Made by a program: the position numbers and the translations under genes
NCBI GenBank assembly: GCA_028715295.1
Contig: JAQUSD010000003.1
Span: 1-52,378 of the forward strand
Direction of reading: 5' to 3'
From: Candidatus Nanoarchaeia archaeon
GTDB lineage: Archaea; Nanobdellota; Nanobdellia; JAQUSD01
DNA: 52,378 nt
In this document: one piece after another, positions 1 to 21,507 of the stretch
Position numbering within the stretch: the first letter of the stretch is position 1
Layout: each line of letters begins with the position of its first letter
The notes under the pieces: model-generated
The model's input: only the letters and a program-made list of their open reading frames with translations
The model's database searches: none
What the model was told of the DNA's origin: nothing

Positions 1-751
1 GAGTTTTATTTTTTGAAATACTTGTAGATATATAACTCGCCTGTGAAGGGCCTAAACCAGGAACAAAACCAAGTATAACAGACGCAAGAACACCCGAAAA
101 AAGACTTTTTACAACCACACTTCTTTTAATATCCACAGCAACATTTTTCATCTGCTTTGGAAAATCAACTTTTTTACTTATGTTTGATATCACTGAACTC
201 AACCCAAAGAGTCCTGTAAGTAGGGCAAGCAGAGGCTGCTTCAATAAATCATTTGTTAGAACAGCAAAACCAAGAACTCCCGAAAGCATAAAAACAAAAA
301 AACTTTGTTTCGGCCTGTCAGCAAAAATCATATTCGCCGATATAAATATTAAAAACATCTTTACAAACTGTTTAAGATTTAATTGAAGAAATTTTATAGT
401 TTCTGAAAGAAAAAACAAAGCAACCATGCACAGAAGCAGAGCACCAAGGCTTCCAATACTTGTAAGCTTTAATGCTTCTATAATCCTGCCTTCATAAAGA
501 AAACTCGACGTTTTTGCAGAAGCAAGTTCACTTCCATCTTCAGGTATATTTAATAAAAGTGCAGGTATAAACTCAAAAAAATTATGCGAAACAGCCATAG
601 CAGTTATAAAACAAATCCAAAAAAGACTGTTTTCTGAAAAAGCAAAAAAAATCAGAAAAGAAGCAACTAAATTTATATGTATTCCAGGGATAACCCCCGT
701 AACAATACCAGAAAAACATCCTAAGATAATCCCTATCAGGACACTAATCAT
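1..751 (-). CDS. TctA/DUF112-family archaeal multi-pass membrane protein, 3' end runs off the window
   Basis: Not in the ORF track. ATG at 751 (plus-strand CAT 749-751) reads MISVLIGIILGCFSGIVTGVIPGIHINLVAS...SHNFFEFIPALLLNIPE; GxxTGxxPGIHxN is typical of this family. Confidence 0.75.
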   Translation of the reverse strand, partial: MISVLIGIILGCFSGIVTGVIPGIHINLVASFLIFFAFSENSLFWICFITAMAVSHNFFEFIPALLLNIPEDGSELASAKTSSFLYEGRIIEALKLTSIGSLGALLLCMVALFFLSETIKFLQLNLKQFVKMFLIFISANMIFADRPKQSFFVFMLSGVLGFAVLTNDLLKQPLLALLTGLFGLSSVISNISKKVDFPKQMKNVAVDIKRSVVVKSLFSGVLASVILGFVPGLGPSQASYISTSISKNKT

Positions 752-2876: not shown

Positions 2877-3686
2877 ATGAATAGAATAATTGACTTTCAC
2901 ACTCATTTAGCATTGCAAGCTGAAACATACTCCAAAGTTCTGAAAAAATATAATATAGAAACAGCAGTATGCATACCTTATGACTTTGGAGAGTTTACAT
3001 TCGAACAACTCCTTCATGAATTAAATAATAAACCTGAAGAGTGGGCAAATGGAGTACTCCCAAAATCAGGAAATTACATCAAAAATGTTCTGCAAAGACT
3101 CATCAATATAAATCTTAGATTTCTTGGAGAGATAAAATCCAAAAAAAATATTATCCCAGCGCCATGGATTAGCCCTGAATGTGATGGGCTTGAAGATTTT
3201 ATTGAAAATCCAGAAATCAAAATAATAAAATTTATTCCTGTGCTGGATAATGCAACAAAAGATTATTACACACAAAAAATAATTCCTTATGTTAAACATG
3301 CGGTTGATAATGATAAACTAATAATGATACACACGGGATGGAGGGCAAAAGTAAAACCAATAAGCAAACTGGCCGAACAGTTCCCCCAAGGAAAATTTGT
3401 AATAGCACATATGAAAGAAGACGATGACTTTATGGGACACGATAGGTTCGCTGTTTTAAAGGATAATAAAAATGTATATGTTGAAACATCTTATGGACAA
3501 GGGCCTCATAGAATAGAAACGTATGTTAAGGAGGGTTTTGGTAAAAGAATATTATTCGGTTCAGATTTCAGAACATCAACATCTTCTCTTGAATGGCAGA
3601 TTGGGATGATTAACCTTTCAGAAATAAGTGAAGAGGAAAAACAAGACATATTATACAACAACGCAAAGAAACTTCTAAAAATCTAA
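2877..3686 (+). CDS. Amidohydrolase-family (TIM-barrel) metallohydrolase
   Basis: IDFHTH, IHTG, AHM, ILFGSDF. Start moved to ATG 2877. Confidence 0.85.
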   Translation: MNRIIDFHTHLALQAETYSKVLKKYNIETAVCIPYDFGEFTFEQLLHELNNKPEEWANGVLPKSGNYIKNVLQRLININLRFLGEIKSKKNIIPAPWISPECDGLEDFIENPEIKIIKFIPVLDNATKDYYTQKIIPYVKHAVDNDKLIMIHTGWRAKVKPISKLAEQFPQGKFVIAHMKEDDDFMGHDRFAVLKDNKNVYVETSYGQGPHRIETYVKEGFGKRILFGSDFRTSTSSLEWQIGMINLSEISEEEKQDILYNNAKKLLKI

Positions 3687-7176: not shown

Positions 7177-7527
7177 GTGTCATTAAAAGAAGTTCAGGAT
7201 AGGGTTGATAACTGGGTTAGACAATATGAGGTGGGCTATTTTAAGCCGTTTGAATGCATTGCATGCTTAACAGAAGAAGTTGGCGAGTTATCAAGGGAAA
7301 TCAGCCATCTTCACGGTTCAAAAAAGAAAAAACCAACAGAGGATAAAAAGGAATTAAGTTCAGAAGTAAGCGACGTTCTTTTCGCTTTAATATGTATAGC
7401 TAATTCAATGGGTATTGATATGGATGAAGCGTTTAATGAAACAATGAATAAGCTTGAAACAAGGGACAAGAATAGATGGGAGAAGAAAAATGAGAGCGTT
7501 CATAGCAGTGGATGTTCCTGTAAATAA
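7177..7527 (+). CDS. MazG-like nucleotide pyrophosphohydrolase (YpjD type)
   Basis: LTEEVGELSRE and EVSDVLFALICIAN. Start uncertain (TTG 7153, ATG 7162 or GTG 7177). Confidence 0.88.
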   Translation: MSLKEVQDRVDNWVRQYEVGYFKPFECIACLTEEVGELSREISHLHGSKKKKPTEDKKELSSEVSDVLFALICIANSMGIDMDEAFNETMNKLETRDKNRWEKKNESVHSSGCSCK

Positions 7528-8008
7528 TGAAATTAAGTCTGTAATTGAAAATCTCAGAAATATTGATACTTCACTTAAACTAGTTGCAGAAGGGAGTTTA
7601 CATATTACTCTTGCATTTCTCGGAGAAATCTCAGAGTCTCAGAAAGATGAGATTTTGCAGTTATTAAACGAAATCAACCACAACACCCTTTTTCAGGCAG
7701 AAATGAAAGGTTTGGAAGCAATAAGTCCTCAGTTTTTAAGAGTAATCTCTGTAGCTATAAATTCAGAAGAACTTGAAAAAACAAGAACAGAACTCGTTGA
7801 AAAGTTAAATAATTTAAAAATTAAAGCAGATAGTCATCCAGCACATTTAACATTAGCAAGAACGAGAACGCAGTTAAAGAAAAAAGAACTATTGCAATAT
7901 ATCAACGACAACAGGAACAAGTCATTCGGAACATTTCAGATAAGTAAATTAAGTTTAAAGAAATCAACATTAACACCTAAAGGCGCAATATACAAAGATT
8001 TGAATTAA
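7490..8008 (+). CDS. thpR: RNA 2',3'-cyclic phosphodiesterase (2H phosphoesterase)
   Basis: MRAFIAVD, HITLAFLG, HLTLAR, STLTPKGAIY. Start at ATG 7490; overlaps the MazG gene by 38 nt. Confidence 0.92.
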   Translation: MRAFIAVDVPVNNEIKSVIENLRNIDTSLKLVAEGSLHITLAFLGEISESQKDEILQLLNEINHNTLFQAEMKGLEAISPQFLRVISVAINSEELEKTRTELVEKLNNLKIKADSHPAHLTLARTRTQLKKKELLQYINDNRNKSFGTFQISKLSLKKSTLTPKGAIYKDLN

Positions 8009-8069
8009 AGATATATACAGCATTTCTGTCAAAACATTTAAAAATACGATTAAAATCAATAGATTATCT

Positions 8070-10160
8070 ATGAAACTTATTGTGTCAGAAAAAGTTATGG
8101 CCGGAGAAAAACTGTCAGAGTTCTTAAGCCAGAATAAGGCAAAAAAAACAAAAGAAAAAGAGGTTCCTGTCTGGACCCATAAGGATTGGGTTATAGTTCC
8201 TATGAGCGGACACATACTAAATTATGATTTTTCAGAAGATTTTTCAGACTGGTCAAAAACAGATATGGAAGAGTTGGTTAACTCTGAAAAAATAATAACA
8301 AAAACCCTCCCAAACGTCTGTGACTTAATTGCAAAATACGCAAAGAAAGCTGATGAACTCATAATAGCAACAGACTATGACCGGGAAGGAGAAGCTATTG
8401 GGTATGAGGCTGTTGATATTGCTGTTGAAAAAAACCCAAAAATAAAATTAAAAAGAGCAAGGTTTTCAGCATTAACGAAAGACGAGATAATCGCATCTTT
8501 TGAAGATAAAAATCTTGTAATCCCTGATAAAAACTTGAGCGACGCAGCAAATGCAAGAAGGGAAATAGATTTGTATTGGGGGGCCGCACTTACCAGATTG
8601 ATTTCAGTCATAGCTCAGCGATTAGGGAGGATGTACCTCTCTGTTGGAAGGGTTCAGTCTCCAACACTGGCAATAATAACTGACAGGGAAAAGGAAAGAA
8701 TGGTATTCAAACCAGAAAGATACTGGGAAATATCAGCAAATCTGGGATTTAGTAAAAATAAATTTACTGCAAAACATAACCCTTTTAAAATCAAGAAAAA
8801 AGAAGAAGCACAAAGAATACAGAATCTTAAAGAAAAAACAGCAAAAGTCATTGAAATAGAAAAAAAACAGGAGCGGACAAAACCGCCAGCGCCATTTAAT
8901 ACAACCTCATTTTTAAGCGCTGCATCAAATATAGGTTTTTCAGTTGCAAATGCAATGAGGCTTGCAGAATCACTTTATCTAAAAGGACTTATTTCATATC
9001 CAAGAACCTCAAATACTGTTTACCCAGAAGCAATAAAATTAAGAGAACTACTTCAGGAACTCTCAAAACAAAGTACATTAGGAAAGTTTGCAAAAGAAAT
9101 TCTTGAGAAAAAGGAAATTATACCTACAAGAGGCAAGAAAAAAACGACAGACCACCCTCCAATTTATCCAGTGGCGCCAGCAGATAAGTCAAAACTTTCA
9201 CAGCAGGAGTGGAAGTTGTACCAACTGGTTTTCAGAAGATTTATAGCAACACTTTCAGACACATCTCTTGAGGAAAAAGCAAGGATGCTTTTTGAAGCAG
9301 GAAAGGAAATATTCTCAATTAATGGATTCAGGGTAATTGAACCAGGATGGAGAAAATATTACAAATACAGTTCCAAAGAAGAAGTTGAAATTCCTAACTT
9401 AAAGAAAGGAGACCTTGTTGAAATTTTGAAAATTAACAGCAATGAAAAAGAAACACAGCCACCTAGAAGATATGGACAAGGTTCATTGATTAAATTAATG
9501 GACGATTTAAACTTAGGGACAAAAGCAACAAGGCACGATATTCTTAAGAAACTTATTTACAGAGGTTATGTTCTTGCAACAAATATGGAACCGACAAATA
9601 TAGCAATGGCGTTAACAGAAGTTATGAAAGAATACGCACCAAAAATAACAAAGCCGGAAATGACAGCACAGCTGGAAGAGTATATGGATGATATTGAACA
9701 GGGAAAGAAAACCCTAAGTGAAGTTGTTAAAACCTCAAAGGAACTTCTTTTAGAAGTTATAAAAACAATTGAAAATCAAAAGGAAGCAGTAGGTGAAAAA
9801 TTAAGAGAAGCCCTTATTCAGGACAGGATAGTTGGCCCATGCAATAAATGCGGGGAAGAAATGATTATCGTGCGTTCAAAAGGAAGTAGAAAGAGGTTTA
9901 TAGCATGCAAAGGATATCCAAAATGTGAGAACAGCTATCCTCTGCCACAAACAGGAAAGCTCCTTGTTTTATCCTCAAAATGCGAAGGATGCAATACAAA
10001 CTACATATCTGTTATTATGTTTGGAAAGCGTCCATGGAAATTCTGCCCTAATATTGACTGTCCAAAAAGACAGGAAGAAGAATATATTATTGAGCTTAAA
10101 AAGAAAAAAGCTGAAGAAGAGAAACTAAAAACACTCAAAGAAGAAAAAACTATTAACTAA
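8070..10160 (+). CDS. topA: DNA topoisomerase I (type IA)
   Basis: Toprim LIVSEK and ATDYDREGE; SVGRVQSPTL; catalytic ISYPRT; HPPIYP; C-terminal zinc ribbons. Confidence 0.97.
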   Translation: MKLIVSEKVMAGEKLSEFLSQNKAKKTKEKEVPVWTHKDWVIVPMSGHILNYDFSEDFSDWSKTDMEELVNSEKIITKTLPNVCDLIAKYAKKADELIIATDYDREGEAIGYEAVDIAVEKNPKIKLKRARFSALTKDEIIASFEDKNLVIPDKNLSDAANARREIDLYWGAALTRLISVIAQRLGRMYLSVGRVQSPTLAIITDREKERMVFKPERYWEISANLGFSKNKFTAKHNPFKIKKKEEAQRIQNLKEKTAKVIEIEKKQERTKPPAPFNTTSFLSAASNIGFSVANAMRLAESLYLKGLISYPRTSNTVYPEAIKLRELLQELSKQSTLGKFAKEILEKKEIIPTRGKKKTTDHPPIYPVAPADKSKLSQQEWKLYQLVFRRFIATLSDTSLEEKARMLFEAGKEIFSINGFRVIEPGWRKYYKYSSKEEVEIPNLKKGDLVEILKINSNEKETQPPRRYGQGSLIKLMDDLNLGTKATRHDILKKLIYRGYVLATNMEPTNIAMALTEVMKEYAPKITKPEMTAQLEEYMDDIEQGKKTLSEVVKTSKELLLEVIKTIENQKEAVGEKLREALIQDRIVGPCNKCGEEMIIVRSKGSRKRFIACKGYPKCENSYPLPQTGKLLVLSSKCEGCNTNYISVIMFGKRPWKFCPNIDCPKRQEEEYIIELKKKKAEEEKLKTLKEEKTIN

Positions 10161-10729
10161 CCCAATACACTGTTAATTTCATAGACAAGAACAGTTGCAA
10201 TTGTAAAAAAATTGAATTTCTCCTCAGAATTATAATTTAGCAAATCAACTTCTTCACCCTCCAAAGCTTTTAAAAAATCAATATAAACTTTAAGAAGATA
10301 ACCTGAATCCGTAAAATTTCTTTTTGGGTTTATAAAATGAATTCTTGGAGAACCCTTGTATATACTTAAAATTAGTTTAGGGGCGTAATCATCGTCTAAA
10401 GTGGCCATGTCCTGTTCTAAATTTAATCTTGAATTTAATTTTTCTTCAAGAGAACCATTAAGCAAATCTTCCTCAGCTATTGATTTCATGTTAAAAAGCT
10501 TTTCAAATAAATTTTCAGGCTCTCCTAATGCTTTTATTTTCTCAAGCAAATTTTCCGTTTTAAGCATTTCAATGTACGCTTTGTAACCCACTTTTATAAA
10601 CTCAGAAACAAAATTATTAGAATAAGATTTAAACTCTTCATCGTTCATTCCGTTCAGCTCTTCATTAGAAACACCATAATATTTACTAAGCGTTGCTGTC
10701 AATCCCCCTCTAAAAAGGTTTATGTTCAT
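10157..10729 (-). CDS. Hypothetical protein
   Basis: 190-aa acidic ORF filling the gap between topA and map; no recognised motif. Confidence 0.65.
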   Translation of the reverse strand: MNINLFRGGLTATLSKYYGVSNEELNGMNDEEFKSYSNNFVSEFIKVGYKAYIEMLKTENLLEKIKALGEPENLFEKLFNMKSIAEEDLLNGSLEEKLNSRLNLEQDMATLDDDYAPKLILSIYKGSPRIHFINPKRNFTDSGYLLKVYIDFLKALEGEEVDLLNYNSEEKFNFFTIATVLVYEINSVLG

Positions 10730-10759
10730 AGAATTAATTTCAACATAAAAACTTTAAAA

Positions 10760-11647
10760 TCATTCTGTTGTAATCTCAACACCCTCTTTTTTAACAATCA
10801 TGGTGTTTTCAGCCTGACTTATAAAACCCCCCATTCTGTCTTTGAGAACAGCATAGTTGTGAAGTATCTCGGCTTTCTCAAGGTAATTCATAATAAAATC
10901 AATATTCCCAAATTTTTTATAAAGCCAGGTTTTTGAAAAAGGAAGTGTAGAGTAGTTTTTTTCAATGTAATCTAAAATCTGTCTGGCTTTTGCTACTCTT
11001 ATCGGTTTTCTTTGGAGTAATTTATATATGGCACCTTTTCTTGTATCAATAACAAAGCCCGCCCCTGTGCTTGCAAAGGGTTCTACAGCAACCACGCTGT
11101 TTTCCTCAAAAATCGTTTTTGAACCATTTGCGTAATTAGGTATGTTTTCTGCATAACCATGGAGTTCATTTTGGCTTAATACGTGTCCGCTTAAATTTTT
11201 AACCGGAACAAAACCATATTTTCTAATAGATTCCTGTATAACAGAACCAACGCCCCCATACGTTGCCCCCAGCTTTATCATTTTTTGGGATTTTTCAAGA
11301 GCCTCTCTGCTGGATTCAATAAGTTTTGAATGTTCATTTGAACCAACCTCAATAGTATAAGCTGTATCAGCAATATACCCTTTAACATGAACACCAATAT
11401 CTATTTTCACAACATCTCCTTTAATTAGTGTTCTTTTGTCTTCTGGATAGGCAGTATCATGAGCAGCAATTTCATTTACAGATATATTAACAGGAAATCC
11501 AATCTCGCCTCCCAAGAATTTTATTTTAGATTCAATTTTTTCAGCGAGTTCAGAATAAGAAACATTGTTCTTAACCAGAAGTTTAGAATATTCTTTTGCT
11601 TCTTTTGCTATTTTGCCGGCTTTTCTGTAATAATCAAAACTGTCCAT
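10760..11647 (-). CDS. map: Methionine aminopeptidase, type II
   Basis: FPVNISVNEIAAHDT, DIGVHVKGYIADTA, NLSGH, AVEPFAS, type II helical insert. Confidence 0.96.
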   Translation of the reverse strand: MDSFDYYRKAGKIAKEAKEYSKLLVKNNVSYSELAEKIESKIKFLGGEIGFPVNISVNEIAAHDTAYPEDKRTLIKGDVVKIDIGVHVKGYIADTAYTIEVGSNEHSKLIESSREALEKSQKMIKLGATYGGVGSVIQESIRKYGFVPVKNLSGHVLSQNELHGYAENIPNYANGSKTIFEENSVVAVEPFASTGAGFVIDTRKGAIYKLLQRKPIRVAKARQILDYIEKNYSTLPFSKTWLYKKFGNIDFIMNYLEKAEILHNYAVLKDRMGGFISQAENTMIVKKEGVEITTE

Positions 11648-11713
11648 GTTATAATCACATCAAAATAACCAATATAAAACTATTCATCAAAAAAAAATGA
11701 TAAGTTAATACAA

Positions 11714-12178
11714 CTAATTTAGAGCAGTACAGAAGGATGAGCCAGCAACACTTCCTGGAAGAGTAATTTCCATTGAATATGTCCTACCATGTTCTAAATT
11801 AGCTGCTGTTGTGAAGTTGTATTGATATAAGGCTGAAACGGAAAGTTCAGGCCAGCTTGTTTCAATAACAGAATCCAGAACTTCTCCGCCCCTTTTTATT
11901 ACAATTACTGCATTTCCAGCGAGAATTCTTGAGTTTCCATCATTAAAAAATGTAAGCTCTACACCCTCTGATGTTGAATTGCATTCTGCTTTTAGAACAC
12001 TAAATCTCGAGCCAGTCTGCCTCTCTAAGTCAGTAATATCCCCTTCTGCTCCTCCACGGCCTCTTTCACTCAATGAAGATATCCATATAAAAGCTGTGCC
12101 AGCAAGAGCAATTGTTATCATAAGCATAAGTATTATGCTTACAATAGGAGTTACTCCCTTTTTAGAGAATTCGATCAT
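11714..12178 (-). CDS. Archaeal type IV pilin-like protein (class III signal peptide)
   Basis: SKKG|VTPIVSIILMLMITIALAG prepilin cleavage motif plus hydrophobic helix. Start ATG 12178 or 12217. Confidence 0.88.
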   Translation of the reverse strand: MIEFSKKGVTPIVSIILMLMITIALAGTAFIWISSLSERGRGGAEGDITDLERQTGSRFSVLKAECNSTSEGVELTFFNDGNSRILAGNAVIVIKRGGEVLDSVIETSWPELSVSALYQYNFTTAANLEHGRTYSMEITLPGSVAGSSFCTALN

Positions 12179-12256
12179 ACAGCTGTAAAGGACTTTTTTA
12201 TTTATAACTGTTTCCATAGGTTAAATTATTAAGTTAATCTGCTTAAGTAAGATATA

Positions 12257-14257
12257 ATGAAAAAAGGAGAAATGTCATCTTTAGATTTAATGGCTGTAAT
12301 AAATGAAATTAAAGAACTGCTTACAGGAGCAAAGCTCCAAAAGGTATATCAGTCTGAAAAAGGAGAATTTTATTTTTACTTTTATAAACAAAGAGAATAT
12401 GTTCTGCATATAATATCAGGAGAGATGATGCATTTAACCAATTATAAAAAAGAATTCCCGCAAGTACCCCCACATTTTTGCATGTTCTTAAGAAAATATC
12501 TAAAAAACGCAGTCCTTTTGAAAATAGTCCAGCCAAAATCCCAAAGAATTGCTGAACTTCATTTTAAGACCTCTAATGAAGAACCATACATCTTAATTTT
12601 TGAACTTTTTTCAAAAGGCAACATAGTTTTATGCGATTCTAATCACATAATAATACAACCTTTGTTATTCCAGAAATGGGCAAGCAGAACAATAAAGCCA
12701 AAGGAAAAATATATTTACCCTCCAACCACAACGCCTGATTTAAGAAGTCTTGACGAAGCAAAATTCATAGAACTTATGTCAAAATCAGAGAAAGCAGACG
12801 CAGTGCGTTTTTTAGCAATAGATATTGGGTTGGGAGGTGTTTATTCTGAATTTATTCTTTCAATTTCAGGAATTGACAAGTATGAATTACCAGATAAAAT
12901 TAACAAAAAAACAGCTTCAAAGCTTTACAATGAACTTATGAAACTTGTTGTAAAAATCGCAACAGGAGATACTGAACCAAACATAATACACTCAAATGGG
13001 TTGCCGTTGTTCGCATCACCAGTTTATCTTGGAAAAACAAATTTAACCGAGTTTAATTCATTTAATGATGCAGTAGACGAATTTTTTGCAAAAGATGAAA
13101 AAACAAAAGAAAATCTAGAAAAAACAAAAAAAACCAATTTAAGGGTAAACGAGTATGTTAAGAGATATGAAGAACAGAAAAAAACCGTTGAAGAATACGA
13201 AAAAAAATCAAAAGTGATGAAATCAGAAGCCGAACTTCTCATGAGAAACAAGTTTGTAATCCAGAATATAATAAGCAAGATACTTTCTTCAAGAAAAAGC
13301 GGATATTCATGGGAAGATATATTACTTAGAGTAAAACAGGAAAAAGAAGCGGGTGTTGATGAAGCCCAAATTATTAAACTAATTGAACCCCATCTCGGGA
13401 AAATAATTATTGATGTTGAAGGAAAAGACCATGAATTTGATTTGCACGATGATGTTGGGTATGTAATAAATGAAAAGTATGAAGATTCTAAAAAATTAGA
13501 AGCAAAAGTTGAAGGGGCCAAATCAGCAATGCTTGAAACTAAAACAAAAATAGAACAGATAAAAAAAGAAGAAGAATCTTCTCCAGTAAAAGAATCTTCG
13601 CTTAAAAAAATAGAGAAAAAAACACCAGCAAGATGGTATGAAAATTATAGGTGGTTTATTTCAACAGACAATTATTTGGTAGTTTCAGGAAAAGATGCTT
13701 CACAAAACGAAATTTTAATAAGAAAATATATGGAATTAAATGATAAAGTGTTCCATGCGGACATCCACGGTTCCCCATTTACAATTGTGAAATCAAAAGA
13801 AAAAAAAATACCTGAAAATACCCTAAAAGAAGCAGCAATACAGACTGCCTCTTATTCAAAAGCGTGGAAAGAGGGGCTAGGAAATGTTGATGTTTATTGC
13901 GTTGAGCCCATACAGGTTAAAAAAAGTGGACCTTCAGGGGAGTATCTTGCAAGAGGCTCTTTTATGATACATGGCAAGAAAAATTATTTTAATAATACTG
14001 TGCTTGAAATAGCTGTTGGTGTACTTATAAAAGACAGCAAATACCAGATTATCTCAGGTCCTTATGAAGCTATAAAAAAACATTCAAGATATTTTGTCAG
14101 GCTTTCTCCTGGACAACAAGACGCTAAAATCCTTGGTTCTGAGGTTTTAACTAAATTAAAGCTTAAGGTTTATGGGAATGATGCGGGCGTCTTAGAGATG
14201 ATTAAGCCTTCTGATATAGAGCCGTTTATTCCAGGAGGCTCAAGATTATTATCCTGA
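12257..14257 (+). CDS. rqcH: NFACT-family ribosome quality control protein (RqcH/Rqc2)
   Basis: SSLDL, FCMFLRKYL, ELFSKGNIVL, long coiled coil, WYENYRWF, GKDASQNE, FHADIHGSP, GEYLARGSFMIHG. Confidence 0.93.
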   Translation: MKKGEMSSLDLMAVINEIKELLTGAKLQKVYQSEKGEFYFYFYKQREYVLHIISGEMMHLTNYKKEFPQVPPHFCMFLRKYLKNAVLLKIVQPKSQRIAELHFKTSNEEPYILIFELFSKGNIVLCDSNHIIIQPLLFQKWASRTIKPKEKYIYPPTTTPDLRSLDEAKFIELMSKSEKADAVRFLAIDIGLGGVYSEFILSISGIDKYELPDKINKKTASKLYNELMKLVVKIATGDTEPNIIHSNGLPLFASPVYLGKTNLTEFNSFNDAVDEFFAKDEKTKENLEKTKKTNLRVNEYVKRYEEQKKTVEEYEKKSKVMKSEAELLMRNKFVIQNIISKILSSRKSGYSWEDILLRVKQEKEAGVDEAQIIKLIEPHLGKIIIDVEGKDHEFDLHDDVGYVINEKYEDSKKLEAKVEGAKSAMLETKTKIEQIKKEEESSPVKESSLKKIEKKTPARWYENYRWFISTDNYLVVSGKDASQNEILIRKYMELNDKVFHADIHGSPFTIVKSKEKKIPENTLKEAAIQTASYSKAWKEGLGNVDVYCVEPIQVKKSGPSGEYLARGSFMIHGKKNYFNNTVLEIAVGVLIKDSKYQIISGPYEAIKKHSRYFVRLSPGQQDAKILGSEVLTKLKLKVYGNDAGVLEMIKPSDIEPFIPGGSRLLS

Positions 14258-14355
14258 AAGTCTCAAAGTCTCACTAAAATTTGAGACTTTTGAGACTTTG
14301 ATAAAAAGAAAGTCTCAAAGTCTCACTAAAATTTGAGACTTTTGAGACTTTGATA
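14256..14355. repeat. Two identical 48-bp units (period 52 bp), each an imperfect palindrome of four AGTCTCA/TGAGACT motifs
   Basis: GAAAGTCTCAAAGTCTCACTAAAATTTGAGACTTTTGAGACTTTGATA at 14256-14303 and 14308-14355, separated by AAAA. Confidence 0.98.
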
Positions 14356-14363
14356 CCTTACAA

Positions 14364-14380
14364 CAGAAAGCAATATATAT
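14364..14380 (+). promoter_or_regulatory. Putative BRE/TATA promoter of the wHTH gene
   Basis: CAGAAAG-C-AATATATAT ending 22 nt before ATG 14402. Confidence 0.6.
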
Positions 14381-14401
14381 CCTTGATTCATTTATTTTTT
14401 T

Positions 14402-14887
14402 ATGAGTTATGAAGAAGCTGAAGAACAAAAACAAAAAAAGACTGAGATACACCTACACCAAAGTGATTTAGGAAGCCTTTTCTCGCACATATCAAAACAA
14501 CTAAGTCTTATGGATGAAAAGCAAAAAATGCTAATGGAAGGCCAGATAAATATGATTGAACATCAAATAATGACTATTTCTGCGCTTAAAAAACACGACG
14601 AAAAGATAAATACAAACGTTTCAAATGTCAATAAAAATGTTTTATCTGGGTTTGAAGCCTTGGAAAACCTTTCAAATCTTAAAAACAAAGTTGAAAAAGA
14701 ATTTAAGAGCGAATTGGGTAAGCAAATGCTTGAGATTTTAAATCAAAAAAAAGAAATGACAACCTCTGAAATAATTGAAGCCTTTAAAAAATATGCTTCA
14801 AGAGCAACAATATTCAGAACTTTAAGCGAATTAACAGAAAGAAACCTTGTGGAAAGAGTTCACGGAAAGATTTTAATCAAAAATTGA
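14402..14887 (+). CDS. Coiled-coil + C-terminal winged helix-turn-helix DNA-binding protein
   Basis: Helical heptad-like residues ~25-100; C-terminus MLEILNQKKEMTTSEIIEAFKKYASRATIFRTLSELTERNLVERVHGKILI fits the wHTH pattern. Confidence 0.8.
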   Translation: MSYEEAEEQKQKKTEIHLHQSDLGSLFSHISKQLSLMDEKQKMLMEGQINMIEHQIMTISALKKHDEKINTNVSNVNKNVLSGFEALENLSNLKNKVEKEFKSELGKQMLEILNQKKEMTTSEIIEAFKKYASRATIFRTLSELTERNLVERVHGKILIKN

Positions 14888-15327
14888 ACACACATAATGA
14901 TAAAAATAGACATTTTGAAATTTCTACAAACGAAAAATATAATTAATAGTTCACCCAAAAAATAAATCATATCTTTGAAAAATCATAATTAAAACATTTA
15001 ATTTTAAAAATATCTGCCCCAAAATAAAATCATGAATAATATCCCACTAAAATTAAAATTTATTTATTGGATATATTAAAAATAAAATAAAATATTTTTT
15101 TCATAATTATTCAGAATAAAACCATAATTTAATTGATAATAATGATTTTAAACACACCGCATAAGTTTTTTAAATAAAAATAAATAATCCAGTTAAAAAA
15201 TAATAAACTTTTAAAAGAAGAATATCAAAATATTTTATTATTTGAGTTTGATGGACAAAGAAAAAACATAAAAGTAATAATCACTATTACCTAAGAACGA
15301 CTTTTAAAATTTTTAAATTAAATTTAA
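14888..15327. other. 440-bp extremely AT-rich non-coding tract between convergent genes (candidate DNA-unwinding element)
   Basis: Hand count 73 G+C in 440 nt (~17%); 31-nt pure A/T run at 15071-15101; no ORF in the supplied track. Confidence 0.7.
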
Positions 15328-18015
15328 TTAATTTTTCCAAAATTCCCTCGTCCTCAAATAATTTTTCTCTCTCCTAATTATCTCTTTAATCAATTCGTCT
15401 TCATTTTCATAATCTCTGCATAGAATTCTATAAGCATTTGTCGCCCCAACACCCACACCAGCAAAAATTAAACAGGTTTTTTTGCCGTGTGATAAATATA
15501 AATGTGCTTTTTTTTCTAAATCTTTAGCTATTTTGATATCTTCACCAATAATTTTTTTATTTTTTACGATTTTTTTAACTATTTTTTCAAAATCTTTATA
15601 TTCAGGGAAGAAGGTTATCAATCCCGAATCACATTTTATACAGTTTATCTTATCTTTTGCAGAAATATAAGTATTTTTTCCAAGGTATTGTCCACATTTT
15701 ATACAATAAAACCTAAACACTTTATTTTTTAATCGGTTTTTTACATGTTCTACCACTTCCTTGTAAGCATTTTCAGGGTTTACAAATTCATTTAAATGGA
15801 ATTTTAATGAAAATTCACCAAATGGAGAGACATTACCATCATTTCTTTCAACCTTTATCAGCTTTTTCCTAATTTTTTCAAGTATTTTCTCAGAATTTTC
15901 AATATCCATATGCTTTTTTATTTCTTCATTGAAGCTTTCTTCATAAACTATGCTGTCTTTATAAATTTCTATCAGCTTTTTCACAATCCTCTTATTGATT
16001 TCAGCATTTTTTTTCAATACCCCGCAACGTTTTGCAACATTTACAAAAGTCCAGTTAAAATTTGAATTGTTTTTTAGAGACAGCTTCAAAATCTCTTTAA
16101 GCCACCCTTCACCTATGTTTAAAAGTGAGGCATTAATAGCATCAAAATTTCTGTCAGGGAGTCTGATTACAGCGCCGTAAGCATCAGATTTCAAAGCGAT
16201 AGAAATTCCGTATTTTGATGATAGAAGTGCTGTAAGAGCTGTATAGAGCGTTTTGTTGATTTTAGTTCCAAAAGATGAATGGACTACTAAATATTCCCCA
16301 TTTATCTCTAAAAAAATTCTATCAACGGAGTGAAGGAAATATTTTTTTTGTCTATCAATGAACTCGTCTTTAATTTTGCTTCTTAATTCATCTGCTGTTT
16401 TTGCTATCAAATATGGAACAGGAATATTTTCTCCATCCCACACAGGAATATTATTGCTTGTTGCACCAATTCTTATTACAAATATCCTATCTCCATCAAG
16501 CTTTGTGACTCTCCAAGGCTCCCCTCTACATACAAACTGCTTTCCAAGTTCAATATTCTCTGCTACAAACTCTTCGTCTAAAACACCTATTTTTGAGTTA
16601 TTCTGCTCATTTATAACAAAATATGTTTTTATTGAGGGAATCATGCTTAAATTGTCATAATAATACAACATGCCTTTTCTTGTTTTGCCAATAACATCCC
16701 CAAATTCTCCAATTAGATTAACCTGTTTCATGAAATCAAGAATTTTCCTAAATTCTTCTTTAGACAAATTCCTATAAACATGAGATTTTTTTACTGAGTT
16801 ATAAACAAACTCTATTTTTGGGTCTCTGAAATCCATACAATATCCTACAATCCCATGGATAAGCACATCATACGGCTTTTCAATAATCTCAAGAGTCTCA
16901 AGATTTTTGAGATTTTGGACAATTGAAACAGCTTCAAGGTAATCATGCGTATTGGTTGTTAATAAAATCCCTTTTGAAACCCTGTCTTTTGAATGTCCTG
17001 AACGTCCAACCCTTTGAATCAAACGCGTAACTTCTCTTGGTGAAGTAAACTGGACAACAGTTTCTATATCTCCCACATCAATACCTAATTCCATAGAAGA
17101 AGTGCAGACTATTGCTTTAATTTCTCCTTTTCTAAACCCGTCTTCTGTTGAAAGCCTACTCTCTTTACTCAGGCTTGAATGATGAACTTCTACTTTTTCA
17201 TTTATCCTTTTGAGTTTTGAACCTAAAAGCTCAGCAGTCTGCCTTGTATTTACAAATACAAGGGTTGATTTTGAGCAGTTTATTATTTCATTTATCTTTC
17301 TAACAGCCCACGCAACTTCTTTACCAACCCCTTGTTTTTCAGCATATTCTAAATCCTCTCCTTCAGGATTTGCTTTAAGAACTTCAATGTCATACTTCTT
17401 GTCAGCATCAAGTCTTACAGTCTCACAGTTTTGAGACAAATAATCCCTTACACCGGAAATATTGCTCACAGTTGCTGAAAGCCCTATTTTCTGGAAGTTT
17501 GGAGATAAAAGTCTCAATCTTTCCAATCCAATGCTTAATTGGGCCCCTCTTTTATCCCCAGCCAATTCGTGAATTTCATCTATAATAACATACTTCAGCT
17601 TTTTCAGATGTTCTCTAAGCCGTTTTCCAATCAATAATGCCTGTACAGTTTCAGGAGTTGTAATCATTATTGAGGGAGGATTTTTACTTTGTTTAACTCT
17701 CTCGCTTTGTTTTGTATCCCCATGCCTGACATCAATTTTAATACCCAATTTTACTCCCCATTGAACAATCCTGTCAAATATGTCTCTGTTGAGAGCTTTA
17801 AGTGGAGTAATATAAAGGCATTTTATACCTTCTTCCTTATCATTTATTAAGTCATTAAACACCCCAATCATACTGGCTTGTGTTTTTCCATAACCTGTCG
17901 GAGCAGTGATAAGAACATCCTTCCCTTCATGGACATGTTTAAATGAGACTTTCTGGTACTCAAATAAGTCCCCATATTCTTCTCCAATTATTTCTGTGAT
18001 TTTAGGATGTAACAT
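15328..18015 (-). CDS. lhr: Lhr-core ATP-dependent DEAH/DEIH helicase
   Basis: APTGYGKT, DEIH, GLSAT, HHSSLS, CTSSMELGID, QRVGRSGH; C-terminal CxxC...CxxC. Confidence 0.95.
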   Translation of the reverse strand: MLHPKITEIIGEEYGDLFEYQKVSFKHVHEGKDVLITAPTGYGKTQASMIGVFNDLINDKEEGIKCLYITPLKALNRDIFDRIVQWGVKLGIKIDVRHGDTKQSERVKQSKNPPSIMITTPETVQALLIGKRLREHLKKLKYVIIDEIHELAGDKRGAQLSIGLERLRLLSPNFQKIGLSATVSNISGVRDYLSQNCETVRLDADKKYDIEVLKANPEGEDLEYAEKQGVGKEVAWAVRKINEIINCSKSTLVFVNTRQTAELLGSKLKRINEKVEVHHSSLSKESRLSTEDGFRKGEIKAIVCTSSMELGIDVGDIETVVQFTSPREVTRLIQRVGRSGHSKDRVSKGILLTTNTHDYLEAVSIVQNLKNLETLEIIEKPYDVLIHGIVGYCMDFRDPKIEFVYNSVKKSHVYRNLSKEEFRKILDFMKQVNLIGEFGDVIGKTRKGMLYYYDNLSMIPSIKTYFVINEQNNSKIGVLDEEFVAENIELGKQFVCRGEPWRVTKLDGDRIFVIRIGATSNNIPVWDGENIPVPYLIAKTADELRSKIKDEFIDRQKKYFLHSVDRIFLEINGEYLVVHSSFGTKINKTLYTALTALLSSKYGISIALKSDAYGAVIRLPDRNFDAINASLLNIGEGWLKEILKLSLKNNSNFNWTFVNVAKRCGVLKKNAEINKRIVKKLIEIYKDSIVYEESFNEEIKKHMDIENSEKILEKIRKKLIKVERNDGNVSPFGEFSLKFHLNEFVNPENAYKEVVEHVKNRLKNKVFRFYCIKCGQYLGKNTYISAKDKINCIKCDSGLITFFPEYKDFEKIVKKIVKNKKIIGEDIKIAKDLEKKAHLYLSHGKKTCLIFAGVGVGATNAYRILCRDYENEDELIKEIIRREKNYLRTREFWKN

Positions 18016-18113
18016 AAGTTGTTTTAGATATATGCCTTTATTTATAAAGGTTATCCAAAATAAAAACCTCCAAAAACCTAATCTTTTTATTCAGCCAAGC
18101 TGAATAATATGTT

Positions 18114-19394
18114 ATGGAATATGATGAGGTTTTTAAAAGAGTTCTGAAAGAGATTAATCCAAAACAATCAGAGATAAAAAAAGCAAACCAGGTTAGCATA
18201 GAACTTAAAAAAATTCTTGAAAAATCCGCAAAAGAACTTAAGATTGATTGTGAGATTTTTCTTGGCGGTTCAATTGCAAAGGGAACCTGGCTTTCAGGAA
18301 AGCACGATATCGACTTTTTCATACGCCTTAACTCAAAATACAATGATTTATCACAATACGCAGGTATGGTGATTTCCAATGCATTATCAACCAAAAATTC
18401 AAAATTCATTATTTCAAAAGTCCATGGCTCAAGAGATTATTATAAGATGGATTACAGGGGTTTTGAAGTTGAATTTGTTCCTGTACTCAAAATCTCAAAA
18501 GTCTCAGACTTTTTAAATATAACAGACGCCTCGCCCTTCCATGTTAAATATGTTCAGAAAGAACTAAAAAAGAACCCTAAACTAAAAGAAGAAATACTTC
18601 TGCTCAAGCAGTTTTCAAAAGCAAACGGCTTTTATGGGGCTGAAACATGGATTTCCGGTTTTTCAGGTTATGTTACAGAACTTTTGATACTCCATTACGG
18701 TTCTTTTTTTAATCTTCTTAAATCAGCATTAGGATGGAAGGGAAAGATTTACATTGATACAAAGAAGTATTACAAAAGTCTTGGAGAAGCTATTAAGAAG
18801 CTGGACAAGTCAAAAACACGAGGGCCTTTAGTTTTAATTGATCCCGTACAAAAAGAAAGAAATGCAGGAGCGAGCATAAATCAAAAAGCACTTGATAAAT
18901 TCATAAACTCAGCTGAAAAATTCCTTGAAAAACCTTTGGAAAACATGTTCAAAAAGGAAAAGATAACAATAAAAGACTTAGAAAAAACAGCAGAAAGCAA
19001 TAACCATGAGCTGATATATTTAGTTTATAAAATTAAAAGCAAAGCAAAAAAAGATGTTTTCTTTGCAAAAATGCAGAGAAATTTAAGAAAATTCAGCGCA
19101 TTTATTGAAAAAGAGAATGTAAAAGTGTATAACAAAGGAATTCTGCCGTCTGAAACTAACCTTTATTTGTGGCTTGAAACAGAAAAAATAACCTCTCTTA
19201 AACCTTATGTTCAGATTGGGCCTTCAGAAACCCGCAAAGATGCGGTCAAAAACTTTAATTTAAAATGGAAAAACCATCCAAGAACAATCAAGGGACCGTA
19301 TATTAAAGACGGAAAAGTCTGCTTTGATGTAAAACCAAGATATAGAATCTTAGACACCTTAATAAAAGAAGCAAAAAAATTCTCTAATTTATAA
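18114..19394 (+). CDS. cca: CCA-adding enzyme, archaeal class I
   Basis: GSIAKGTWLSGKHDIDFF, SPFH, YGAE, GFSGYVTELL, LIDPVQKERNA. Confidence 0.96.
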   Translation: MEYDEVFKRVLKEINPKQSEIKKANQVSIELKKILEKSAKELKIDCEIFLGGSIAKGTWLSGKHDIDFFIRLNSKYNDLSQYAGMVISNALSTKNSKFIISKVHGSRDYYKMDYRGFEVEFVPVLKISKVSDFLNITDASPFHVKYVQKELKKNPKLKEEILLLKQFSKANGFYGAETWISGFSGYVTELLILHYGSFFNLLKSALGWKGKIYIDTKKYYKSLGEAIKKLDKSKTRGPLVLIDPVQKERNAGASINQKALDKFINSAEKFLEKPLENMFKKEKITIKDLEKTAESNNHELIYLVYKIKSKAKKDVFFAKMQRNLRKFSAFIEKENVKVYNKGILPSETNLYLWLETEKITSLKPYVQIGPSETRKDAVKNFNLKWKNHPRTIKGPYIKDGKVCFDVKPRYRILDTLIKEAKKFSNL

Positions 19395-20078
19395 TTAAAG
19401 CATTTTAGTTAAGTCAAGAAGCAGAACCTCTTTAATATCTACGTGCTTCATAAACTTTTCAGTTGATTCTCCCGCCCCCCCAACAAGTTCATTGAATGCT
19501 GGGACAAGAATAATCTTCTTCTTTACACCATGAAACTCGCACTCACCAATAAACCACGCTTTATTTGGGGTTATTGATTCAACCCGGTCCCTTAACTTGT
19601 ATTCCGGGTGCACATGTCCAGCAATTATAATCTTCACTTTACTCATCATTTCCTTGCTTGGGAATGCATGTCCATGTATAAATCCAAAGCCACCCAGAGC
19701 CTGCTCCTTGATTATTTTAACTTTGACTTTTTCTTTCCTTGCTAAGTCTTCAAGCCCGGCATCATGGTTGCCTCTTACAATAATTATTTCTTTGAAAACG
19801 CTTGAAAGCTTTTCAATGAAAAAGGGGATTTCATTCTGCTCCTGCCAGCTTATCAAGGGTATGCTGTGTTTAAAGTCTCCAAGTATCATGAGACTTTGAG
19901 ACTTTGTTCTTTTACCTATTTTAATGAGTTTTTCAAGCATTTTAGAGGTTTGAGACACAACCGTTATGCCTCTACGTCTTAATTCTTTCTCAACACCAAT
20001 ATGCATGTCAGCAACAATAAGGGTTTTTCCTATACAAAAGGAAGCAGTATTTTTGTTAAATCTTACCTTCATAATCAT
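19395..20078 (-). CDS. Metallophosphoesterase, COG1407-like (Lhr-associated MPE type)
   Basis: ADMHIG, LGDFKH, GNHD, HGH, GHVHP, PAFN. Confidence 0.9.
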   Translation of the reverse strand: MIMKVRFNKNTASFCIGKTLIVADMHIGVEKELRRRGITVVSQTSKMLEKLIKIGKRTKSQSLMILGDFKHSIPLISWQEQNEIPFFIEKLSSVFKEIIIVRGNHDAGLEDLARKEKVKVKIIKEQALGGFGFIHGHAFPSKEMMSKVKIIIAGHVHPEYKLRDRVESITPNKAWFIGECEFHGVKKKIILVPAFNELVGGAGESTEKFMKHVDIKEVLLLDLTKML

Positions 20079-20377
20079 ACATATCTCAGGACAAGTTTTC
20101 TTGAAAACTCACAGTCCTCTTTTGAAACCCTGCCCTTTTCAAGAACAATGTTTAGGATAACACCAATTCTTTTTATCTCGTCTTCTGTAAACTTATAACC
20201 GCTTGCTTCTGAAAGATGTTTAAAGTCTTCTAAATCAGAAATTACTCCTGTTTTCTCAGCCATCTTAATTTTTAATGTTTTTAAATACAGGAAACTCGCA
20301 GAAGTATATTTTTTAGCTTTAAAATATTCTTCAGCCATTGCAAAATAATCAACATTTTTATTTTCAATATCTTCCAT
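20075..20377 (-). CDS. Small helical hypothetical protein (TPR- or HEPN-like first helix pair)
   Basis: YFAMAEEYFKAKKYTSASFLYLKTL; ATGA overlap with the downstream phosphoesterase. Confidence 0.6.
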   Translation of the reverse strand: MEDIENKNVDYFAMAEEYFKAKKYTSASFLYLKTLKIKMAEKTGVISDLEDFKHLSEASGYKFTEDEIKRIGVILNIVLEKGRVSKEDCEFSRKLVLRYV

Positions 20378-20431
20378 ATCTTTTTCTAACCAAGCAATAT
20401 CTATTAAATCTTTTGTTATTATTTATTTTTT

Positions 20432-20935
20432 ATGGATTTAGAGCTGATGTGCACTTCAGGTAAATGTGGAATTTGCTGTTTTTATTATTACAAAAACAAA
20501 GGATACCATATTGCTTTTGAAAAAACAGCAAATACAGACAAAAAATTAAGTGAATTTATAGAAAAAAACAAAGACAAGATAATGGAAAACATTTCAGAAA
20601 TTGGGACCAAATCTTATTTTACAGCAATAAGAAAAGACGCTTATATTCTAACAAAACACGGGGAACGCTTTTATCCATGCTCTTTTTTAGACATAACTAG
20701 AAATGAAAACACAAAAACAATTGAAACCATCCTGTGTTCAATACATGAAAGTGATTACCGTCCGGATGTATGCAAAAACAAAGAAACTTCTAAAAACAGC
20801 CAAATTGAACCTTGCTGGGCTTTATTTTTCAAGGAGATTGCATGTATTGTTGTGAGTAAAAAACTATACAAATTAAATGACAATTTAATGGATTTATGCA
20901 GGTACTACGCGCATCTTTATGAAACATTTAAATAA
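20432..20935 (+). CDS. YkgJ-like CxxCxxCC Zn/Fe-chelating protein
   Basis: CTSGKCGICC ... PCSFL ... CSIH ... RPDVC. Confidence 0.72.
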   Translation: MDLELMCTSGKCGICCFYYYKNKGYHIAFEKTANTDKKLSEFIEKNKDKIMENISEIGTKSYFTAIRKDAYILTKHGERFYPCSFLDITRNENTKTIETILCSIHESDYRPDVCKNKETSKNSQIEPCWALFFKEIACIVVSKKLYKLNDNLMDLCRYYAHLYETFK

Positions 20936-20958
20936 ATCAGTATTATACCTTGTAATTT

Positions 20959-21507
20959 ATGACAGAAGAACAGCAGTGTCCATTTTGTGCAATAGCGTCG
21001 GGAAATATTCCCTCAAAAGTCCTTTACGAAGATGATGCTGTTGTGGCTTTTCTTGATATAAATCCCGCAAATGCAGGACACACAATTATTATCCCAAAGA
21101 AGCACTACGCTTTTCTTTATCAGGTTCCAACTGAAGAAATGGTTAAATTATTTGCAGTAGCAAAAGCTCTTTCAGTTGCTGTTGTTCAGGCGGGCGGTGC
21201 ACAGGGCATGAATATGATTTATTCAATGGGCCCTGCAGCAGGACAGAGGGCCCCCCACATGATGATTCATTTAATTCCTAGGTTTGAAAACGATAAAGTG
21301 GTTATTTCATGGGATTCTGCACCAGCAAGCGAGGAAAACCTGGTAAACATGGCTGATAAAATAAAGTCAACTTTAAGAAGCGGGGGAGTATCAACCCCAG
21401 AAACAATTGAAGCACCAAAACCAGAGCCCAAGCCTTCTGAACCTGAAAAACAAGATGAAGAAGAAAAGCCAAAAATCACATGGGTCCCTCCAAAAAGAGT
21501 CCCTTAA
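20959..21507 (+). CDS. HIT-family protein with degenerate triad and Pro/Glu-rich tail
   Basis: CPFCAI, FLDINP, GHTIIIPKKH, GQRAPHMMIHLIPR. Confidence 0.9.
   Translation: MTEEQQCPFCAIASGNIPSKVLYEDDAVVAFLDINPANAGHTIIIPKKHYAFLYQVPTEEMVKLFAVAKALSVAVVQAGGAQGMNMIYSMGPAAGQRAPHMMIHLIPRFENDKVVISWDSAPASEENLVNMADKIKSTLRSGGVSTPETIEAPKPEPKPSEPEKQDEEEKPKITWVPPKRVP

Follow-up and report, generated by a model that had tools for sequence, protein, structure and literature searches.

An orphan coiled-coil winged-helix protein gene, its promoter array and matching intragenic sites near the replication origin of a DPANN-type archaeon: a candidate chromosome-organising locus

What is the function of a small winged helix-turn-helix (wHTH) gene that sits behind a dense array of a nine-base word, when the same word recurs inside the core genes around it? 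The question is raised by a locus in a contig of 52,378 nucleotides (JAQUSD010000003.1, here termed C2 or, as the whole stretch analysed, the window) from the assembly GCA_028715295.1 of Candidatus Nanoarchaeia archaeon. A sequence-only reading of the window had noted a repeat array, an adjacent wHTH gene, an AT-rich tract and a one-sided cluster of intragenic sites within 5.7 kb, and had proposed a wHTH-initiator origin, a segregation or chromosome-organisation site, or an autoregulated transcription factor, in that order. All four observations are real; the coincidence of all four dissolves, since the AT-rich tract is an unrelated UPF0047/yjbQ pseudogene. We favour, at a probability of roughly 40%, the interpretation that a self-regulated, bridging DNA-binding protein marks an origin-proximal segment of the chromosome, as a centromere-like or chromosome-organising site and not as a replication origin. 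The second of the earlier proposals is thus the best to survive, on account of DNA-level selection on the sites, their proximity to the origin, a coiled coil in the protein, a second cluster of sites on contig C29 and a parallel with SegB.

The source assembly comprises 777 kb in 42 contigs at 33% G+C, with a completeness of 94% and the gene content of a DPANN-type archaeon. The whole dataset is this one metagenome-assembled genome (MAG), for which there are no close relatives. C5, C25, C29, C31 and C32 are other contigs of the same genome, and C29 is unplaced.

A nine-base word in an array and inside neighbouring genes

The array consists of two units (Table 1) and starts at the stop codon of the NFACT (rqcH) gene, which occupies 12257-14257. 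Each unit possesses four half-sites of the word AAAGTCTCA in the order ++--, giving eight in the array, and reads GAAAGTCTCA-AAGTCTCA-CTAAAATT-TGAGACTT-TTGAGACTTT-GATA. The core centres are spaced by 8, 15, 9, 20, 8, 15 and 9 bp. The array ends approximately 20 bp before a TATA-like sequence and 47 bp before the start codon of a gene for a 161-aa wHTH protein. The distance between the TATA-like box and this ATG suggests a leaderless transcript, whereby the array would lie at roughly -50 to -150. Its location at the wHTH gene's own promoter implies autoregulation. The sequence-only reading had held that autoregulation explains the array and not the satellite sites elsewhere, and our results agree.

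In the window, the exact 9-mer was observed 13 times against 0.79 expected, a count that none of 100 shuffles reached. Mapping the word across the genome, as had been suggested, revealed 19 copies in 777 kb: 13 within the 5.7 kb between 14257 and 19905, three in a single gene on C29, and three singles. Five copies in the window lie outside the array, at 17508 and 17944 in Lhr, at 18498 in the CCA-adding enzyme (CCA) gene, and at 19889 and 19897 in the metallophosphoesterase (MPE) gene. When these three genes were recoded with the codon usage of the genome while their proteins were kept, 0.154 copies were expected, and no recoding out of 1000 reached five (maximum two). As protein sequence and codon usage account for so few, the intragenic sites are under selection at the DNA level. 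They use rare codons: CTC, which accounts for 5.7% of Leu, and GTC, which accounts for 6.9% of Val. Outside the two clusters the word is scarce: the three singles compare with approximately 10-12 expected from composition, and the remaining 377 long open reading frames (ORFs) contain no copy against approximately 3.4 expected.

The satellites and the array follow a common grammar: whichever the coding strand, half-sites step by 7-9 bp in tandem and by 13-15 bp when inverted. With a composite site defined as two or more RTCTCA cores in a stretch of 22 bp, the genome possesses 10, of which six fall in C2:7628-19905. The composites in the LigT-like and Lhr genes are near-identical 30-mers on opposite coding strands, and their likeness therefore resides at the level of DNA and not of protein. 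The palindrome in the MPE gene equals an array unit minus its 8-bp central spacer and is 83-85% complementary to the array (inverted repeats). The cluster had been described as one-sided, which is correct for the exact 9-mers; the degenerate composite in the LigT-like gene lies to the left of the array. Satellites occur at +63 to +1130 within their genes and never in a promoter, and a classical regulon is consequently a poor fit. The TopoIA, MAP and NFACT genes, interspersed among the site-bearing genes, have no sites.

The only cluster of exact 9-mers outside C2 was found on C29. The region C29:914-5434 contains a gene for a MinD/ParA-type ATPase (266 aa), a HIT-family gene and then a divergent 1032-aa ORF, which is coiled coil throughout and matches no Pfam family. 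Three exact copies are present in this ORF, at 3460, 3468 and 4020 (approximately +1100 and +1660 within the gene), where 0.07 would be expected (P < 0.0005). The genome encodes three ParA/MinD-superfamily proteins, on C29, C31 and C32. An adjacency of C29 and C2 found support neither in overlapping ends nor in synteny.

The array folds strongly (-28.7 kcal/mol, z = -8.2) and is capable of forming a cruciform. Together with its start on the NFACT stop codon, this might suggest an RNA-level or structural element, in which two 48-nt hairpins terminate or stabilise the NFACT mRNA, or a cruciform or recombination hotspot, the wHTH gene being unrelated. However, there is no U-tract and no terminator call, and neither Rfam nor tRNA scans of the window returned a match. 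Additionally, a hairpin role would leave the half-site and partial-palindrome satellites on either coding strand unexplained. We regard such an element as very improbable.

Table 1 Features of the locus. Positions refer to the window; offsets with a plus sign are positions within the respective gene.
Feature	Position	Strand	Remarks
Composite ++- in LigT-like gene	7627-7657		~+173; AATCTCA-GAGTCTCA-N6-TGAGATTTT; degenerate
Primary array	14256-14355		two 48-bp units, 14256-14303 and 14308-14355, 100% identical, 52-bp period
TATA-like box AATATATAT	14373-14381	+	~21-29 bp upstream of ATG 14402; putative, from sequence reading
Orphan 161-aa protein gene	14402-14887	+	Pfam; AF2 single-sequence model; homologue searches
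Decayed UPF0047/yjbQ pseudogene (AT-rich tract)	14914-15294	+	profile alignment, Pfam, tblastn
Composite ++- in Lhr	16886-16916		~+1100; grammar of the LigT site, opposite coding strand
Inverted pair AGTCTCA-N6-TGAGAC in Lhr	17417-17437		~+580
Single exact 9-mer in Lhr	17508-17516	+	~+500
Single exact 9-mer in Lhr	17944-17952	-	63 nt past start codon
Tandem AAAATCTCA-AAAGTCTCA overlapping palindrome AAAGTCTCAGACTTT, CCA-adding enzyme gene	18489-18512		~+375
34-bp ++-- palindrome in metallophosphoesterase gene	19872-19905		+173 to +206; encodes KSQSLMILGDF
Core hexamer TGAGAC only	19951-19956	-	weak, possibly chance

The replication origin and the AT-rich tract

The order C25(+), C5(+), C2(+) follows from three observations. 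The gene for the PolD large subunit (PolD-L) is broken across C25 and C5, a 400-aa gene runs off the end of C5 and continues at the beginning of C2, and the last 243 bp of C5 overlap the first 243 bp of C2 (window 1-243) with 99.6% identity.

A canonical oriC was located at C25:19874-21534, comprising ORB-like (origin recognition box) repeats, an AT-rich spacer, the orc1/cdc6 gene and the gene for the PolD small subunit (PolD-S). The ORB-like sequence CCCCTTGATTTCCAGTGGAAC is present as four direct copies (at approximately 19888, 19933, 19962 and 20015) and one inverted copy (approximately 20187) around the AT-rich spacer (C25:19888-20220). The orc1/cdc6 gene (C25:20333-21534) is the only one in the genome, and the sole Cdc6_C match falls at C25:21220-21498. 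A small PadR-like wHTH gene, conserved in relatives, lies upstream of the ORB repeats at C25:19559-19873. The array is approximately 21 kb from this origin, and the sites on C2 span approximately 14.5-27 kb from it. No ORB-like repeats were found at the array locus. GC skew over the joined C25-C5-C2 sequence tracks gene orientation and says nothing on origins.

As the sequence-only reading had stated, the window contains no orc1/cdc6 and no ParA-type gene; integrase and transposase genes, also reported as lacking, were not searched for. Both of the former are encoded elsewhere in the genome, orc1/cdc6 with its ORB repeats on the adjoining contigs and the ParA/MinD superfamily on the three contigs named above. 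The proposal of a wHTH-initiator origin is not supported: it was to fail should the origin map elsewhere, and a textbook oriC does lie some 21 kb away. A second origin at such a distance from the first is unlikely in a genome of 0.78 Mb.

The AT-rich tract does not rescue an origin at this locus. Positions 14933-15332 form the 400-bp window of lowest GC content in the assembly (15.5%, the mean being 33.5% with sd 3.6); one other such window falls below 20% and is an N-gap artefact. A profile constructed from the yjbQ of five relatives aligned over positions 5-132 of 134 across the tract, with many stops and at least one frameshift. Furthermore, Pfam PF01894 (UPF0047) matched 15166-15288 (E = 1.1e-3) with two stops, this being the sole match in the genome, which possesses no intact copy, and tblastn with the UPF0047 proteins of relatives identified 15151-15288 at 37-43% identity. 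Relatives have several genes between NFACT and Lhr, typically with yjbQ/UPF0047 directly after NFACT. The tract is a pseudogene in its ancestral syntenic position and not an unwinding element; it is best explained as AT-drift in a dead gene, outside the binding system. It also illustrates the speed at which DNA free of selection drifts to A+T in this genome.

The arrangement recalls a replication-fork barrier, a Tus/RTP-like Ter cluster with the binder gene beside the primary site. In Bacillus subtilis, the gene for the small winged-helix dimer RTP lies just downstream of an autoregulated inverted pair of Ter repeats, with extra sites nearby. Conversely, the present locus is located close to oriC and not at the terminus, a position that excludes a terminus role, and its sites are palindromic with no switch of orientation across the array. 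Of all the explanations considered here, a fork barrier is the least probable.

The site-bearing genes form part of a conserved block (window 7454-21507) consisting of LigT, TopoIA, MAP, NFACT (RqcH), Lhr, the CCA-adding enzyme, MPE and HIT. This block includes several RNA/DNA end-processing enzymes and stays together and origin-proximal across families of the class.

The orphan protein, its insertion and its recognition helix

The gene downstream of the array encodes a 161-aa protein in which residues 107-156 constitute a DeoR-like wHTH (HTH_DeoR, PF08220; 31.7 bits, E = 1.3e-7, Pfam cut-off 21). The other Pfam matches were to generic wHTH families only (MarR, TrmB and others). NCBIfam gave weak matches to GlpR/DeoR, Sta1 and Lrs14, confined to the HTH stretch, with those to GlpR/DeoR far below the cut-offs. 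The recognition helix reads ASRATIFRTL. In a single-sequence AlphaFold2 (AF2) model, the N-terminal part is predicted to form one long, coiled-coil-like helix of approximately 113 residues (residues 3-115); its mean predicted local distance difference test (pLDDT) score in 10-residue blocks was 84-96 up to residue 80 and 73-77 beyond. The wHTH part scored 50-66 in the same alignment-free model, such that the long helix alone was modelled well. Pfam revealed no DeoRC effector domain, no ParB-type domain and no ligand-sensing domain, and Pfam-A gave no match to an Orc1/Cdc6 or Cdt1 domain; the wHTH is single.

Searches for homologues recovered the protein itself and nothing else among 5.8e9 clusters and 1.8e9 representatives, the latter read whole by HMMER. 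In all, no homologue was detected across 15 billion proteins. In 60 relatives, nothing was found beyond generic wHTH matches (the Orc1 winged-helix domain and a membrane regulator). The genome contains no paralogue, and phmmer against PDB chains returned nothing. The phylogenetic profile of the wHTH family that the sequence-only reading had envisaged was therefore not possible.

A DNA-binding domain of DeoR/GlpR, Lrs14 or Sta1 type, combined with an array that precedes the gene's own TATA box by 20 bp, might suggest that the protein is a local transcription regulator. The array would then serve autoregulation, with the intragenic sites acting as auxiliary operators or roadblocks (in the manner of DeoR/GlpR/LacI looping) that co-regulate the end-repair genes LigT, Lhr, CCA and MPE. 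The site-bearing genes do share RNA/DNA end processing, several sites lie within the first 60-600 nt of their genes, and DeoR and GlpR are known to use distant and intragenic operators. However, no satellite resides in a promoter, sites extend to +1100 in Lhr and as deep or deeper in the C29 gene, and the TopoIA, MAP and NFACT genes in between have none. Distances of up to 6.6 kb, and a separate contig, exceed known looping operators, and the protein has no domain with which to sense a ligand. We consider a local regulator somewhat unlikely.

The flanking block is conserved in at least 11 class-level relatives. The order seen in relatives is orc1, PolD-S, PolD-L, X, the genes of left C2, LigT, TopoIA, MAP, NFACT, a gap of variable content, Lhr, CCA, MPE and HIT. 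In seven relatives Lhr and orc1 lie 16-48 kb apart on the same contig. None of the relatives that keep the block carries a wHTH gene between NFACT and Lhr, and the syntenic DNA of 16 relatives, 346 kb in all, contained three exact 9-mers, which is background density, and no wHTH gene. Since the flanks are conserved in relatives without the wHTH gene and the motif, the array and the wHTH gene represent a lineage-specific insertion of approximately 640 bp between rqcH and the dead yjbQ. The earlier description of the locus as chromosomal rather than mobile is accordingly right for the flanks, whereas the array and the gene are themselves inserted. The gene, the array and the satellites co-occur, and do so only in this genome; when the syntenic regions of the 16 relatives were scanned de novo for k-mers, no comparable pattern of array plus satellites emerged.

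Two observations were made in the relatives. In one class-level relative (L103, genome G024), the G+C-rich 10-mer TCTGGAGCGG is present in 148 copies in 0.9 Mb against one for the reversed control, on both strands and largely intragenic, with eight copies within approximately 6 kb around orc1 (C2:162.3-168.4 kb of that genome). In L092, L093, L094, L095, L096, L098 and L100, a conserved gene of 55-64 aa (e.g. MANLIVKKACKDAVKSLGKRCPDSTIDALD...NNRKTL...DL) lies at the 3' end of Lhr; its product appears histone-fold-like from the sequence, and the gene is missing from that position in the present genome.

Outside this genome, the pattern AGTCTCAAAGTCTCA-N(4-12)-TGAGACT was found in 14 contigs from GTDB and 39 from metagenomes; all of them appear to be bacterial, and their G+C contents are 33-72%. 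The pattern always belongs to longer arrays of direct and inverted octamers in those contigs. Many of these arrays lie where a gene ends (3') whose product is Toprim/AAA_25 Rep-like or another P-loop protein and closes with an HTH domain, the helix of which reads SRATFFR, SRATYFR, SRAQYFR or SRASVFR; others adjoin sigma-54-type AAA+ proteins with SRATLYR. Within 400 bp of arrays, a looser helix pattern, [RK][AGPS][STQ]x[FY]R, shows an 11-fold enrichment. The strict pattern, SRA[TSQ]x[FY]R, occurs once in this genome, as the SRATIFR of the orphan protein. An hhalign comparison of the orphan wHTH with the HTH domains beside the bacterial arrays gave an alignment over the 17-residue recognition helix and nowhere else. 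Common ancestry with these domains was rejected as unproven for this reason, and we treat AGTCTCA with SRATxFR as a putative shared recognition code. The recurrence of such an array with such a helix hints at a portable protein-DNA recognition pair.

The iteron-type origins of small, plasmid-like elements that encode Toprim/AAA_25 Rep proteins (L010, L011, L021, L023, L025, L028, L031, L044 and others) resemble the present locus in their identical AGTCTCA core, in octamer arrays that are tandem plus inverted, and in a near-identical helix (SRATFFR or SRATYFR against SRATIFR) within a few hundred bp of the array. They differ in that their proteins are replication ATPases or primases with the array at the 3' end of rep, whereas here the array lies upstream of the gene and no AAA_25 or Toprim enzyme is fused to the HTH. 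One of these elements, L023 (MWVW01000565.1, 8191 bp), is a head-to-tail concatemer of a 4.2-kb circle that encodes a Rep of 704 aa, in which Toprim and AAA_25 domains are joined to a C-terminal wHTH. At its 3' end, the rep ORF crosses AGTCTCA/TGAGACT arrays, giving a protein tail that reads ...ESLKVS...SLNETNET...; L025, L029 and L051 are related elements. In L013 and L014 (genomes G061 and G062, Thermoanaerobaculia MAGs), AGTCTCA-N-AGTCTCA is present in 75 and 647 copies per genome, with 0 and 25 (15 forward and 10 reverse) for the reversed control. The elements there are dispersed palindromes of 3-7 alternating AGTCTCA/AGTCGCA octamers, a 15-40 bp spacer and an inverted set, and constitute a REP/MITE-like repeat family composed of the AGTCTCA word.

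Might the locus be a mobile-element remnant, a captured plasmid-like iteron and DNA-binding module that is now neutral or selfish, or that functions as a secondary wHTH-dependent origin? Octamer arrays of the same kind on plasmid-like contigs, the shared helix and the lineage-specific insertion of the cassette all agree with this idea, as does the complete identity of the two units, which suggests a recent duplication. On the other hand, no Rep, helicase, primase or partition gene accompanies the cassette (an integrase is also counted as missing, no integrase search of the window having been made), and a match limited to the recognition helix leaves common ancestry unproven. The array pattern had no match in PLSDB or INPHARED, nor in IMG/VR, where two control patterns likewise matched nothing and the comparison is thus uninformative; a literature search for the motif returned primer noise only. 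Moreover, selection on satellites within core genes of the host points to a function at host level, and the secondary-origin version is opposed by the nearby canonical oriC and by the identity of the supposed unwinding element as a pseudogene. We therefore find a mobile remnant quite improbable.

A bridging model and its relation to known systems

We infer that the 161-aa protein binds these sites, bridges between them and serves in segregation or chromosome organisation. The protein would dimerise or tetramerise via its long N-terminal helix, and the recognition helix SRATIFR would read the AAAGTCTCA half-sites. With the eight half-sites upstream of its own TATA box filled, the protein would set its own level. 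The coiled coil could then bridge the array to the weaker composites in LigT, Lhr, CCA and MPE, reaching approximately 7 kb leftwards and 6 kb rightwards, and bridging may extend to the second cluster, in the 1032-aa coiled-coil gene on C29 two genes from that of the MinD/ParA-type ATPase. The outcome would be a looped, origin-proximal nucleoprotein mark, SegB-, RacA- or ParB-like in its logic.

Several points weigh against this proposal. No ParA or SegA gene adjoins the wHTH gene, whose product is an orphan known from one MAG; segregation systems are usually conserved, and the present one is not. Small wHTH genes with upstream palindromes mostly encode plain autoregulated transcription factors. 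LigT, Lhr, CCA and MPE all act on nucleic-acid ends, which suits a local regulon. The proximity of the locus to the origin comes with the flanking block and could be a coincidence, as approximately 7% of random spots would fall within 28 kb of oriC. Finally, the link to the MinD-like ATPase consists solely of a site-bearing gene two positions away, on a contig that is unplaced.

In its boldest form, the locus would represent a new molecular type of chromosome-marking (centromere-like) system and the first such candidate from a DPANN archaeon. The orphan protein would label the region 14-27 kb from oriC through sites selected in essential genes, by means of a word avoided elsewhere, and would be coupled to the MinD-like ATPase and the giant coiled-coil protein encoded on C29; a plasmid DNA-recognition module would have been captured and repurposed for the host chromosome. 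This full account is rather unlikely. To our knowledge, the segregation systems described in model archaea are SegAB and a few others. One small protein, a 9-bp word, a primary array and some ten secondary sites, with selection visible in their codons, make the locus a compact, testable candidate for chromosome organisation in DPANN archaea. On this view a lineage-specific binding protein can, moreover, impose DNA-level constraints on essential genes. The analysis also corrects an origin call that was attractive but wrong: it maps the real oriC, puts three contigs in order and identifies the genome's most AT-rich tract as a dying gene.

Among known systems, the DeoR/GlpR family shares with the orphan protein the HTH_DeoR domain, which scores above the Pfam threshold, and is known for multi-operator looping, intragenic operators included. 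The wHTH of the orphan protein is, however, C-terminal and not N-terminal, and a coiled coil takes the place of the DeoRC sugar-phosphate sensor. ParABS, whose ParB combines an HTH with an N-terminal CTPase domain, differs in that the orphan protein has no ParB-type domain and its motif is unrelated to the 16-bp parS. Orc1/Cdc6-ORB origins and the Sulfolobus oriC3/WhiP system resemble the locus in having repeats beside a winged-helix gene and an AT-rich stretch. Yet the true ORB, orc1/cdc6 and PolD origin of this genome is at C25:19.9-20.3 kb, the AT stretch at the locus is a pseudogene, and the protein possesses a generic single wHTH with no Cdt1/WhiP homology in Pfam.

RacA with its ram sites in B. 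subtilis and MatP with matS in E. coli are small proteins that combine a DNA-binding domain with a coiled coil and recognise scattered, largely intragenic short palindromes across a single defined region of the chromosome, which in the case of RacA is origin-proximal. The domain order of RacA is the reverse of that seen here, and there is no homology. The region marked here would be approximately 12 kb, against hundreds of kb for RacA and MatP, and a dense eight-site array is present at the gene's own promoter.

In Sulfolobales, SegB has sites at its own promoter, 83.7% of its sites are intragenic, and 16 peaks fall within 50 kb around segAB and oriC1, with one peak inside the SMC-like clsN gene; looping of distant sites is also described (Kabli et al., bioRxiv 10.1101/2025.02.07.637068). 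The features reported here run parallel to this pattern: a long coiled coil, clustered intragenic sites, a word scarce elsewhere and a further cluster on C29. In both cases palindromic sites lie at the protein's own promoter, of high affinity for SegB and candidate sites judged from sequence here; in both, most sites are intragenic and clustered within tens of kb of the own locus and of oriC, a site resides inside the gene of a long coiled-coil (SMC-like) protein, and bridging or looping is proposed. They differ in their motifs (AAAGTCTCA against TCTAGA-S-TCTAGA), and no sequence relationship was found in large protein libraries or by phmmer against PDB chains. Unlike SegB, the present protein has no adjacent SegA-type ATPase and two site clusters only in 0.78 Mb, and it is an orphan and not a conserved family. 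Because defining features of SegAB, ParABS, DeoR proper and the ORB-origin family were tested and found to be absent, the system is not a member of any of these. Its likeness to SegB, RacA and ParB is one of site pattern and not of ancestry.

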